From the NCBI GenBank assembly GCA_965248535.1, contig CBDFJR010000005.1:1440001-1504000 (forward strand): a DNA stretch of 64,000 bases. The letters run 5' to 3'. The stretch's first letter is position 1; each line of letters opens with the position of its first letter. The notes under the pieces are model-generated. The model was not told the origin of the DNA. It worked only from the letters and a program-made list of their open reading frames with translations, and ran no database searches. The stretch comes from Phormidesmis sp. (GTDB lineage Bacteria > Cyanobacteriota > Cyanobacteriia > Leptolyngbyales > Leptolyngbyaceae). This document shows, piece by piece, positions 37,725 through 63,603 of this stretch. Both the position numbers and the translations under genes were made by a program.

Positions 37725-38228
37725 ATGGTTGCCGATCGCTCTTGCCAAAAGCCCCGTCGATTTGTTAGACCAAGACCCACGGCGATCGGGGTCGCTGTTT
37801 GGCTGGGGGTGACGGGCGTGATGTGTTCTGTTGCAGGCACGATCGCGCCGCGAGTCGTTCAAGCTTACACGACTAGGGTTGATGTGTCCCTCGATCGCTT
37901 GCCTGACGAAAGCTATGATGCACTGATTCGCAGAGCCGATATTGTTGCTAGGGCGGCGGCGCAGCGTGGCTTCGATCGAGACATTCTCACCAGCGAGGTC
38001 TCGGTGATTGTGATCGGGCGCAATCAAGGCGCAGAAACTCCCATTTTGACTCTAGATGTCAGTCGAGTGCAGTGGAGCGGCCGCCCAGATACGAGACGTT
38101 GGGCAACTTATTACAAAACGTCGGCGGTGCTGTTGGGGTTTGAGAAACTGTCTCCGCCTCCTATAGCGGTGACTGCTCCCACTCCGGTTGTGGCACCGAC
38201 TCCTGGCACCAACGCACCCAAGCGGTAG
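37725..38228 (+). CDS. Conserved cyanobacterial secreted hypothetical protein
   Basis: Signal-like segment, then AYTTRVDVSL...ARAAAQRGFDRDIL...RRWATYY. Confidence 0.75.
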   Translation: MVADRSCQKPRRFVRPRPTAIGVAVWLGVTGVMCSVAGTIAPRVVQAYTTRVDVSLDRLPDESYDALIRRADIVARAAAQRGFDRDILTSEVSVIVIGRNQGAETPILTLDVSRVQWSGRPDTRRWATYYKTSAVLLGFEKLSPPPIAVTAPTPVVAPTPGTNAPKR

Positions 38229-38450
38229 GCTAGGACTCCGATAGAGCAACACGAGGCTGCTCTTAAAGACCCGCAGTGGAATGTGCTGGGTGGGTTTGGG
38301 CGCGAGGTGAAGACAATCTCCGATCGCTAGACTGCGTTCATGCAGTTTTCTAATTGCCAACCTGCTCAATATGATGTCAACACGCAAGCATGAATGACAT
38401 CAGAGAGTCGAGACTCAATGGGATCAAGATGCTCTCCATAATCGATCTAC

Positions 38451-38693
38451 CCGATCGCAGGTCACATTCCCGGAGCGGTTAACTATCCCTGGCAAGACGC
38501 GACTGACGCAAATGGGTTGATTCGTTCGGCGCGAGAACAGCGCGATCGCTGGGCATCCTTGTAATCTGCGGATGAGATTGTGGTCTATTGTGGGTCAGGG
38601 GTCACGGCTTGCGTCAATCTGTTGTCTTTAGCGATCGCAGACATTGACACCGGAAAGCTCTATGCAGGTAGCTGGAGTGATTGGTGTTCTTAT
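38451..38693 (+). pseudogene. C-terminal fragment of a rhodanese/3-mercaptopyruvate sulfurtransferase (SseA-like)
   Basis: PIAGHIPGAVNYPW...RWASL*SADEIVVYCGSGVTAC...LYAGSWSDWCSY; in-frame TAA at 38562-38564; 5' half not found. Confidence 0.85.
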
Positions 38694-39213
38694 AGAAACG
38701 GGAGAGCCTGAGAACCCGCAAAACCCATCGTGCTTCAGCCGTGGGATGTAGCGAGGGTTCTCGCGCCTGCGGCAGCAGGCAGAGTCCAGCAATCTTCATG
38801 AAATCGCACTCCGATTTGTGATAATTTTGTACTTGTGGAAAGGTAATCAACCACTTTAAAAACCTTGCTGTCGAGAGACACGCTGAACCTTGAAAATTGA
38901 ATCTATGCGGTTCTACTGCATTTTTCTAGACTCCCCCTCGCAGTAGGTAAAAGATTTAGAGGAGCTAGACAAACAGCATTTTGAGGCCTATCTGCTTCAA
39001 ACTTAAACAGGACTTGCGGCGCTCAGTGCTGAAGACGGGTTTCCCGTCGCAGGCAACTGAGTAAGAGAAAAGCAAATAGGGTAGGGCATACCCGAATTAA
39101 CGCTTGGGGAGAATCCCACCTCTGGTCTAGATGACGCAAGGACTCTAGGTTAAGTGGTTTCATTGAACCAAGAATCCCACGGCTCCGCAAAGCTAAAGCC
39201 GTGGGAGTGTCAA
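38694..39213 (+). mobile_element. Non-autonomous IS200/IS605-family element (no tnpA/tnpB ORF)
   Basis: Preceded by TTAT; left hairpin 38724-38745 with 5' AAAA; right hairpin 39175-39206 with 5' GAAT; ends TCAA; no target duplication; removal restores both flanking gene ends. Confidence 0.85.
38885..38896 (+). promoter_or_regulatory. boxA-like antitermination motif
   Basis: GAACCTTGAAAA, the same as the boxA of cyanobacterial rRNA spacers; an extended -10-like TGTGATAAT lies at 38817-38825. Confidence 0.5.
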
Positions 39214-39233
39214 CTTTGACTAACCAACCGCAG
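39077..39233 (+). ncRNA. Putative TnpB omega-RNA scaffold plus flanking guide
   Basis: GGGTAGGGCATACCCGAATTAACGCTTGGGGAGA...TTGAACCAAGAATCCC...GGGAGTGTCAA resembles cyanobacterial tnpB 3' ends; the guide would be the ~20 nt after TCAA. Confidence 0.6.
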
Positions 39234-40376
39234 CGATCGCACAGTTTCGAGGATCACGTCAGCGGCGCGATCGAGGTCTTCACCCGTGTTGAATCGCCCA
39301 ATCCCCACCCGAATCGACGCATAGGCTAGCTTGTCAGAAAGCCCCAACGCTTGAAGGACATGAGACGGCTCAATCTTGGCAGATGTGCAGGCAGAACCCG
39401 ACGATACCGCGATCGCTGGCTGCACGCCCAACAAAAGAGCTTGCCCATCTACGCCGTCTACGCTGAGGTTGAGATTTCCCGGTAGGCGTTGGGTCGGGTG
39501 TCCATTTAAGTGAACGCCGTCTAGCTGACACACTCGCTGCCACAGACGATCGCGCAATTTGGTTAAGCGCAGTGACTCGGCTGGCATCTCTGCGATCGCT
39601 AGCTCAACCGCTTTGGCAAACCCGACGATCTGGGGCGGATAGAGAGTGCCCGATCGCAGCCCCCGCTCGTGGCCGCCGCCGTGCATTTGAGGCGCGATTT
39701 GAACTCTAGGATTTCGTCGCCGCACATACAACGCGCCGATGCCCTTGGGGCCATAGACTTTGTGAGCCGTCAGAGACATTAAATCGATCTGCATTGCCTC
39801 GACATCTAGCGGAATTTTTCCGATCGCTTGCGCTGCGTCAGTGTGAAATAGCACATGGTGCTTGTGACAGAGATGCCCGATCGCGGCTAAAGGCTGCAAC
39901 ACGCCAATCTCATTATTAGCCGCCATGATCGACACCAAAATCGTGTCCGATCGCAGGGTCTTTTCTAACTCATTCAGATTGACTAAACCATCGGGTTCTA
40001 TGGGCAAAATGGTGACTTCAAACCCTAACAATTGCAGATAACGACCCGGATCAAGAACAGCATTATGCTCTGTCTGAAGGGTAACAATGTGTCGTCCTCG
40101 ATCGAAAGACGCTTCAGCAACACCCTTAATCGCCAGATTGTTGGCTTCGGTGGCACCACTCGTAAACACAATCTCTTTAGGGGTCGCGTTAATCGAATCT
40201 GCCAGAGTGGTTCGGGCTTGCTGAATCGCGGCTTCTGCCTCCCACCCATAGAGGTGCCCCCCGCTCGACGGGTTGCCAAACTGTTGAGTGAAATAGGGCA
40301 CCATGGCGGCTAGCACCCGATCATCTACGGGCGTAGTCGCTTGATTATCAAGATAGATCGGACGTTGAGCCATCAT
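39210..40376 (-). CDS. iscS: Cysteine desulfurase (IscS/NifS)
   Basis: YLDNQATTP, FTSGATEANN, AHKVYGPKG, SSGSACTS. Confidence 0.93.
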   Translation of the reverse strand: MMAQRPIYLDNQATTPVDDRVLAAMVPYFTQQFGNPSSGGHLYGWEAEAAIQQARTTLADSINATPKEIVFTSGATEANNLAIKGVAEASFDRGRHIVTLQTEHNAVLDPGRYLQLLGFEVTILPIEPDGLVNLNELEKTLRSDTILVSIMAANNEIGVLQPLAAIGHLCHKHHVLFHTDAAQAIGKIPLDVEAMQIDLMSLTAHKVYGPKGIGALYVRRRNPRVQIAPQMHGGGHERGLRSGTLYPPQIVGFAKAVELAIAEMPAESLRLTKLRDRLWQRVCQLDGVHLNGHPTQRLPGNLNLSVDGVDGQALLLGVQPAIAVSSGSACTSAKIEPSHVLQALGLSDKLAYASIRVGIGRFNTGEDLDRAADVILETVRSLRLVSQS

Positions 40377-40509
40377 TCACTCATTCTAGCTCAGGGCCCG
40401 TTAGCGACAGATTGCCGTTTTGCGGGTGTCAATCGCACCTAGTTCAACGTCAGTCTCCCAGGCAGGTGCATCCGCTCTAAACAAATGCACCCTGCCAAAA
40501 AACGAGCGA

Positions 40510-63418: not shown

Positions 63419-63516
63419 GTGACTCGGATCTATGCGATCGCGACACCCAAATCTTGTCAGGGCCGGAAGGCAGCAGCAATACGGGATGCTCACGGTAGGC
63501 GTAGTCTCCGGGTCAC
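63419..63516 (+). ncRNA. ffs: Signal recognition particle RNA (4.5S)
   Basis: TCAGGGCCGGAAGGCAGCAGC helix-8 motif; terminal stem GTGACTCGG/CCGGGTCAC; TATTCT -10 upstream and a T-run downstream. Confidence 0.95.
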
Positions 63517-63603
63517 TTTTTTTGGGGCGGTAAACCCCCGTGGTCAGTCCTTCAGCTTTTTGCGTATCCTGGAAGAAATCGACGACATAGGAGCCTAAAA
63601 CAG

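Follow-up and report, generated by a model that had tools for sequence, protein, structure and literature searches.

The stretch of DNA analysed here, called the window throughout, comprises 64 000 nucleotides (nt) of a Phormidesmis sp. genome of 5.03 Mb in 5 contigs, and corresponds to C5:1440001-1504000, where C2 and C5 denote contigs of this assembly. At window positions 38694-39213, on the plus strand between a fragment of a rhodanese-type gene and a cysteine desulfurase gene read from the opposite strand, lies a 520-bp repeat that is a non-autonomous, gene-less element of the IS200/IS605 family (PATE), has one structured RNA gene and is probably used in trans by TnpA and TnpB. An earlier sequence-only reading had flagged positions 39077-39233, which are the last part of this repeat, ending in ..GGGAGTGTCAA at 39213, plus its flank, as an orphan omega RNA with a guide against the 3′-end of iscS. 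The locus contains the following features.

38440..38693, plus strand: rhodanese-type 3′ fragment with in-frame stops (pseudogene), which reads on into the left end of the element; recognized by its match to relatives' genes
38690..38693, plus strand: TTAT, the transposon-adjacent motif (TAM) before the left end, and also the last codons (TCT TAT) of the rhodanese fragment; found in 4/4 elements, with relatives' empty sites placing the other two full copies behind an orthologous TTAC or TCAT
38694..38786, plus strand: left end, with a subterminal hairpin at 38724-38745; 96% identity to the C2:2302809 element
38817..38825, plus strand: extended −10 box resembling a promoter, TGTGATAAT, 9 nt upstream of the RNA unit; from a consensus scan and relatives' hexamers
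38835..39068, plus strand: structured leader (5′ domain), specific to the tnpB-less family; from cross-genus coverage, compensatory changes and a leader profile
39019..39066, no strand assigned: nested 48-nt hairpin repeat within the leader insert; a lone copy, 100% identical, lies at C5:460122-460169
39069..39213, plus strand: omega-RNA-type scaffold, which is the right end; from nhmmer, covariance model R1 (144.7 bits), covariation and a TnpB ghost
39175..39206, plus strand: subterminal right-end hairpin with a 12-nt loop at 39189-39200; from the copy alignment and family covariation
39210..39213, plus strand: TCAA, with which the right end closes, and whose bases 39210-39212 form, on the minus strand, the TGA stop of the cysteine desulfurase; all copies end in ..GTCAA
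39214..39233, plus strand: predicted guide, the flank behind the right end; assigned by position only
39210..40376, minus strand: IscS-subfamily cysteine desulfurase gene, 388 aa; from Pfam and NCBIfam

We compared positions 38000-40500 with the whole genome by blastn, which shows a repeat spanning ∼38687-39213. The genome holds three full copies including the one in the window, one left-truncated copy and one variant. The other two full copies, C2:1792740-1793266 and C2:1965371-1965892, are on the minus strand and 97–98% identical by blastn, the left-truncated copy is C2:982472-982827, and the variant lies at C5:1702870-1703215 by blastn, with a covariance-model match that ends at 1703243. 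When the copies are aligned together with their flanks, all of them share the right boundary, ..GTCAA at 39213, behind which the flanks diverge, and TTAT (38690-38693) precedes the left end in 4/4 elements that share this end, namely the three full copies and a tnpA/tnpB element at C2:2302809. Since the copies share this boundary and TTAT precedes the full copies, the right end at 39213, the guide start at 39214 and the TAM TTAT had all been placed correctly in the sequence-only reading. In calling the RNA an orphan, that reading was right that no tnpB is attached, but what it described is the right end of an intact mini-transposon whose left end lies at 38694. Both ends carry subterminal hairpins, and the arms of the left-end hairpin resemble those of the right-end hairpin. 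Between the ends there is no gene, and no open reading frame (ORF) in the ORF list exceeds 78 aa. In the occupied site, the bases that stand before the flank behind the right end are TCAA, not TTAT.

The mobility of the element can be read from its two sister copies. In 7/7 same-genus genomes a single contig carries both flanks of the C2:1965371 copy no more than ∼90 nt apart, and those of the C2:1792740 copy lie 25 to ∼200 nt apart on one contig in 4/7 of these genomes and on different contigs in the other three. In the eight relatives' loci that were read (five for C2:1965371 and three for C2:1792740), the junction falls directly behind an orthologous TTAC or TCAT. These empty sites imply that both copies inserted after the split from the relatives, 3′ of a tetranucleotide and without duplication. 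For related subfamilies of this genome the motif is TCAT (C2:933) or TTAC (C5:1506). TTAC is the canonical insertion motif of the family, and the motifs of IS608 are TTAC and TCAA. Like elements of the IS608/ISDra2 type, the window element is inserted 3′ of a tetranucleotide (here TTAT), ends in TCAA at the right, has no inverted terminal repeats, and would on scarless excision rebuild both the motif and the target; unlike them, it lacks both tnpA and tnpB. On its anatomy, copy number and mobility, 38694-39213 is a non-autonomous, gene-less IS200/IS605-family element.

The scaffold at its right end is homologous to the 3′-ends of tnpB genes. A nhmmer profile made from the last 240 nt of four copies and searched over the whole genome matches, besides the copies, five sites that immediately follow the zinc-ribbon coding part of tnpB genes: C2:2304439-2304573 (E 2.1e-10), C5:1505374-1505230 (E 6.9e-6), C2:2252314-2252169 (E 7.3e-6), C5:1039258-1039380 (E 1.3e-3) and C5:921415-921275 (E 3.1e-3). 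These matches begin at profile positions 96–107, equivalent to window positions 39069-39080, run to the right end and finish in GGGAGTGTCAA or GGATGTCAA. In an alignment with the tnpB right ends, blocks of the scaffold are conserved and the two arms of the terminal hairpin vary in concert. The claim that the last ∼135 nt resemble the 3′-end of a tnpB gene thus holds, in sequence and in a compensatory fold, although the extent it assumed was too short: homology to tnpB ends does begin at 39069 or 39077, but the conserved RNA unit starts at 38835. That tnpB itself is gone is likewise confirmed, as all that the element retains of it is a ghost of 13 residues, NRVGHTRINAWGE, found in a translated comparison with the six resident TnpBs and matching the C-terminus NTLGHKEIYAWGE of the C2:2304 TnpB; by its sequence this peptide appears to belong to exactly that TnpB lineage.

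We built a covariance model, R1, from an alignment of 19 sequences (15 tnpB-less and 4 tnpB-linked). R1 finds 13 modules in the genome, six at tnpB 3′-ends and seven without tnpB, the latter being the five copies together with C2:933552-933757 and C2:598364-598569, which are ∼206 nt long and score 80.7 and 73.0 bits. In 40 related genomes R1 recovers eight tnpB-linked modules outside its training set (L086, L102, L087, L104, L105, L089, L091 and L093), and because it finds such modules that were not used in building it, it behaves as a model of TnpB right ends. The scaffold in the window scores 144.7 bits with R1, built here, and matches no Rfam family. Taken together, these comparisons support the assignment of the scaffold to the omega-RNA type, standing without its tnpB. 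A truncated tnpB at C5:921274-921630, with an open frame of only 225 aa, keeps a full right-end scaffold of 107.5 bits.

The fold of this RNA carries the mark of selection. For the 19-sequence alignment, RNAalifold predicts 32 pairs that are 96.2% paired compared with 79.4% after shuffling, a value that 0/500 shuffles reach, and 20/32 of these scaffold pairs show compensatory changes compared with at most nine when the structure is slid by 1–3 columns. The same holds if only tnpB-less sequences are considered (16 sequences), where 35 pairs are 97% paired versus 89% in shuffles (0/500) and 12/35 pairs show compensatory changes versus at most three in the slid controls. For the whole unit, an alignment of 33 units gives 71 pairs, of which 63 were predicted and 8 added by eye, that are 96.9% paired versus 87.7% shuffled; compensatory changes occur in 34/71 pairs versus at most 13 in slid structures, and 16 of these 34 lie in five helices of the leader. 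G-U pairs in helix 4 fit an RNA read from the plus strand. The sequence comparisons thereby show that the RNA fold is under selection in the tnpB-less lineage.

This conserved RNA unit spans 38835-39213 (379 nt), with the omega-RNA-type scaffold as its 3′ 145 nt, and is preceded by a putative promoter. A consensus scan finds ATGAAA and GATAAT 16 nt apart, with a TG, at 38798-38825, and in loci of other genera a TAnAnT hexamer ends 4–12 nt before the unit start in 33/50 cases, compared with 1/50 at two control offsets. The leader of ∼190 nt is structured, and its profile matches only the five copies in this genome and no tnpB gene. We considered whether the leader could be a fossil of tnpB, and rejected this on the profile result and on the weakness of the lone translated alignment to a TnpB, which covers 69 residues at 27.5% identity (E 0.003 in a six-protein database) and contains stops. 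A small ORF in the leader (ATG at 38905) was also discarded, as its start is missing in some members and, by reading, its variation is pairwise.

Both proteins that a gene-less copy must obtain from elsewhere have candidates in this genome. Among 11 Y1_Tnp matches, C2:2302909-2303313 is full length and lies behind a left end that matches that of the window element: window positions 38688-38786 (99 nt) are 96% identical to C2:2302809-2302907. It is a divergent Y1 transposase gene whose product has 134 aa (Y1_Tnp, 124.9 bits over the full profile). The TnpB of the same element (C2:2303362-2304516, 385 aa) has OrfB_IS605 and TNB domains, scores 278.9 bits with NF040570 (guided_TnpB), and keeps the motifs GLDVGL, VYEDL and DRDHNAAINIL, which we take to be the RuvC triad. 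Judged by their sequences, both the TnpA and the TnpB of this element, which shares the left end and the TTAT motif with the window element, appear intact, so that the TnpB supplied in trans that the sequence-only reading had supposed has a likely source, together with a TnpA. The resident element type also seems to have contributed to the window copy itself. The 3′ arm of the right-end hairpin and the tail behind it, GCCGTGGGAGTGTCAA, are the same in the window copy, C2:2304 and C5:1505, and the copy looks chimeric, with its left end and right-end hairpin arm and tail from the resident element type and its RNA body from a widespread family.

We consider it rather probable that 38694-39213 is a PATE composed of a left-end hairpin, a promoter, a single structured RNA gene (38835-39213) and a right-end hairpin ending in TCAA, and that it is used in trans by TnpA and TnpB. 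In the IS200/IS605 model, TnpA excises the element as single-stranded DNA and reinserts it 3′ of the motif, TnpB is led to the rejoined donor site by a guide RNA that reaches across the right end, and repair from a sister copy restores the element (10.1101/2023.03.14.532601). The anatomy of the window element fits this published model. The TnpA of C2:2302909-2303313 would move the element in trans as single-stranded DNA, with insertion directly 3′ of TTAT. Starting at its own promoter, the RNA would be read across the right end and on into the flank, such that its last 16–20 nt (39214-39233) serve as the guide, and would be bound by a resident TnpB, for which C2:2303362-2304516, whose element uses TTAT, is the best candidate. 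Excision by TnpA would rejoin the flanks and so place TTAT before the guide match, TnpB would cut this joint, and recombination with a sister chromosome copy would then restore the element. The guide is unique in the genome in that no other site has TTAT followed by its sequence, the best other 16-mer having one mismatch and standing behind CCGT, and for this reason the joint formed by excision would be its only TTAT-adjacent target. As read from the sequence, precise excision would leave a rhodanese end ..WCSYL*, a desulfurase end ..LVSQR* and TTAT directly before the 20-nt flank. In this light the sequence-only interpretation, partly supported by our results, was right in kind and incomplete. 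Gene-less IS200/IS605 elements that keep a guide scaffold test the use of TnpA and TnpB parts in trans, and this one is a clean natural case, with a resident tnpA/tnpB element that shares its left end and TTAT, two sister copies with empty sites, and a fold kept without a nuclease gene.

Several observations weigh against use by TnpB in trans. Identity between the scaffold in the window and its nearest tnpB-linked counterpart is only 60% (88/146 columns), so that cross-loading is no more than putative. In the window, no Rfam 15 family matches the element at its gathering score, though Rfam may hold no model for this clade, and with E-values up to 10 the region 38700-39500 gives only three chance-level matches to snoRNA and lncRNA families. 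The ∼190-nt leader has no counterpart in tnpB elements and is left unexplained by the model, and covariation in the hairpins could reflect recognition of the DNA by TnpA rather than a function of the RNA. One same-genus genome (G002, 98% complete) has at least six units, but the candidate TnpB finds there no better match than one of 39% identity. A tnpB ending at the scaffold motif was found in 0/52 loci of other cyanobacteria that have at least 1300 nt upstream (tblastn with the six resident TnpBs, E 1e-5), and no tnpB-bearing parent of the scaffold class was seen in the 4/4 relatives' loci with 1500 nt upstream. No empty allele of the window site was found in the six same-genus genomes checked. 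Contigs of the metatranscriptomes X1 and X3 cover 38840-39017 and 39065-39213, but they come from relatives, show no start, end or strand, and represent homologous parts, so that they give no evidence of transcription at this locus. Several of the G002 units lie at contig ends, and a tnpB copy there may be unassembled.

Some of these points would suit an RNA that is functional (∼325–380 nt) and acts by some route other than TnpB, with another partner or alone, for instance in transposition control, as an antisense RNA, or as a terminator module on neighbouring genes, which here would mean the desulfurase gene, whose stop codon and 3′ untranslated region lie within the element. The absence of tnpB from all 52 loci, the leader without a tnpB counterpart and the units in G002 without a close homologue of the candidate TnpB all favour this view, as do the terminator-like right-end hairpin with TTCTTGGTT on the minus strand behind the desulfurase stop and a guide region antisense to the last seven desulfurase codons. 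However, the 3′ domain is homologous in both sequence and fold to the scaffolds at tnpB 3′-ends, the flanks differ at every copy and thus offer no common antisense target, and 4/5 relatives with units hold TnpB homologues that are 68–74% identical (68–70% in three of them, and 74% over a fragment of 176 residues in G007), while this genome holds the gene itself. We regard a role outside TnpB as improbable. It is very improbable that the element is an inert relic, left by deletion from a tnpB insertion sequence and now only copied or passed on, with a fold that has lost its function: the Rfam result, the left truncation at C2:982472 and the frameshifted small ORF of the C5:1703 variant would agree with this, yet a relic would hardly be expected to show compensatory changes in 12/35 pairs of the tnpB-less lineage and 34/71 of the whole unit, including helices far from the TnpA hairpin, a −10 box kept at a fixed distance (33/50 loci versus 1/50 in controls), 74–84% identity across many genera with every invariant column retained in the window copy, or fresh insertions since the split from same-genus relatives.

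A further alternative concerns only the history of the locus. Its flanks could have been joined by recombination between two copies, or by another rearrangement, in which case an element-free allele never existed. This is unlikely overall, but it has real points in its favour, since the rhodanese and desulfurase genes lie on different contigs in 6/6 same-genus genomes checked, the rhodanese gene is present here only as a 254-nt 3′ fragment with stops, and the genes downstream of the desulfurase differ among the six relatives. Against it, the flanks read together give plausible gene ends, ..WCSYL* (two relatives have ..WCSYL..) and ..LVSQR*, and a contig of run X13, at a depth of 2 and joining 38693 to 39285, may come from a relative with the two genes adjacent. 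On either history, an exact excision of the present copy would bring TTAT next to the guide match.

The scaffold of the window element belongs to a family that is widespread in cyanobacteria. A 25-base scaffold motif occurs in at least 116 loci of a collection of genome contigs, with record titles that include Planktothrix, Nostoc, Dolichospermum, Tolypothrix, Arthrospira, Scytonema, Nodularia and Leptolyngbyaceae, among others. We fetched 80 of these loci for detailed comparison, of which 75–80 cover window positions 39074-39173 and 46–58 cover 38835-39070. In the examples listed across genera identity is 74–84%, and the window copy keeps every invariant column. In its usual form the element reads TTAC, then a hairpin-bearing left end of ∼80 nt, then an A+T-rich stretch containing a TATACT-like box, and then a unit starting GTGGAAAGGTAATCAACCAC, whose first hairpin covaries, GTGG/CCAC alternating with CAGG/CCTG; the unit is 320–329 nt long in 26/48 units elsewhere. 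The window unit, at 379 nt, is longer because of an extra insert with the 48-nt hairpin repeat. One TnpB-like fragment lies elsewhere in locus L130.

This distribution invites a bolder and rather doubtful reading, in which the family would be a guide-RNA-only transposon lineage that has spread through many cyanobacterial orders without ever carrying a nuclease gene. Each copy would bring a promoter of its own and a covarying 5′ domain of non-tnpB origin, and the lineage would parasitize the TnpA/TnpB system instead of being its decayed copy. If it were true, the 5′ domain could capture the TnpBs of unrelated elements, out-compete their guides, or work with a different partner. Irrespective of this, the family may be of interest to the mining of TnpB guide RNAs, as it offers a promoter-driven RNA of ∼325 nt with an unexplained leader in at least 116 loci, and no tnpB in the loci examined.

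Besides the IS608/ISDra2 type, two kinds of published system resemble the window element. In Geobacillus stearothermophilus, gene-less, minimal PATE-like IS200/IS605 elements encode omega RNAs, and the authors propose that PATEs use TnpA and TnpB in trans (Meers et al. 2023, 10.1101/2023.03.14.532601). The window element is like these in that it is gene-less, has subterminal hairpins at both ends, has ends in common with tnpA/tnpB elements of the same genome, and encodes an omega RNA across the right end with the flank as its guide. It is unlike them in that the RNA unit of its family has its own promoter and a structured leader of ∼190 nt, in that its scaffold class is tnpB-less in every locus examined (0/52) across many cyanobacterial genera, and in that the window copy looks chimeric. 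Stand-alone omega RNAs, mobilized without an effector or transposase in genomes that hold effector loci, reportedly function in trans (Altae-Tran et al. 2021, as cited by Altae-Tran et al. 2023, PMC10691335). The window RNA likewise stands without an effector or transposase in a genome with effector loci, and unlike theirs its function in trans is only predicted, with the nearest effector-linked scaffold in this genome only 60% identical. The use of stand-alone omega RNAs and PATEs in trans is thus already in print. For the features of the cyanobacterial family we found no published description, only the general concept, in a search that did not extend to the supplements of the cited papers, and what was seen of the literature on the Nezha MITE held nothing relevant to it.

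The insertion has shaped the neighbouring desulfurase gene. Pfam Aminotran_5 covers residues 7–370 of its product, which scores 304.6 bits with NCBIfam NF002806 (cut-off 304) and 539.7 bits with NF010611, just under the cut-off of 548. The protein ends in ..RSLRLVSQS* here and in ..RSLRLVGKDLLV*, ..RSLRLT* or ..RSLDLKN* in relatives. Its last residue and stop codon derive from the insertion junction, the stop being the TCA among the last bases of the element, and because relatives' proteins end 1–6 residues differently, no more than the very C-terminus was replaced by the insertion. The right-end hairpin, with the T-rich TTCTTGGTT behind it, scores as terminator-like on the minus strand and lies directly behind the stop codon. 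For the host, the insertion supplies the desulfurase with a stop codon and probably a terminator. The guide at 39214-39233 is indeed antisense to this IscS-subfamily gene, as the sequence-only reading had claimed, and covers its last seven codons, but it is simply the insertion flank; it is not aimed at iscS by design, and the overlap is an accident of the insertion site.

On the other side of the element, only query positions 241-494 of the rhodanese region match relatives' genes of 276–305 aa, giving the 254-nt fragment, and the Pfam Rhodanese match to its last 43 residues (E 0.0011) is below the cut-off. Relatives' intact rhodanese genes lie at other loci, and a DNA search found no further copy in this genome. 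The junctions of the element with both flanks are carried without differences by contigs of X13 and X14, which are sequencing runs of unspecified kind. The X13 contig that joins 38693 to 39285 skips the element at a depth of 2 (side 29), and may represent a related strain with the genes adjacent. The only Rfam match in the window at gathering score is the bacterial small SRP RNA (RF00169) at 63421-63517, with 57 bits.

The right-end hairpin of the window copy differs from that of its three sister copies in its loop at 39189-39200, which is inverted: ccgcaaagctaa here and ttagctttgcgg there, between perfect arms of 9 nt. The hairpin gives 32-nt reverse-strand matches of 100% to the sister copies, and the contigs of X13 and X14 agree with the window in carrying the inverted loop. 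The inversion gives a minus-strand RNA a longer stem, with a terminator-like score just behind the desulfurase stop codon.

Two relatives of the element within the genome deviate in their left ends. The module at C2:933288-933757 has a left end 89% like that of the window and is preceded by TCAT. The variant element (∼C5:1702660-1703243, and also L076 in contig G002:C37) has a different left end and an opposite-strand ORF of 41 residues that diverges from the RNA promoter; this ORF is frameshifted here and intact in G002. Read by eye, this ORF appears ribbon-helix-helix-like, and no such small ORF was found in the 80 loci of other cyanobacteria.

The leader insert of ∼100 nt (38971-39071) is missing from many relatives, whose contigs show joints of 38970 to 39072 or 39073, and it contains the 48-nt hairpin repeat. 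This repeat also occurs elsewhere in the genome, standing alone at C5:460122-460169 and, among others, at C2:1641198-1641235. In X13 the summed contig depth reaches ∼14 500 over the repeat compared with 20–700 around it, and is very high at 39005-39051. In other genera, small palindromic inserts of a similar kind sit elsewhere in the unit (L147, L142, L144, L132, L182 and L169).

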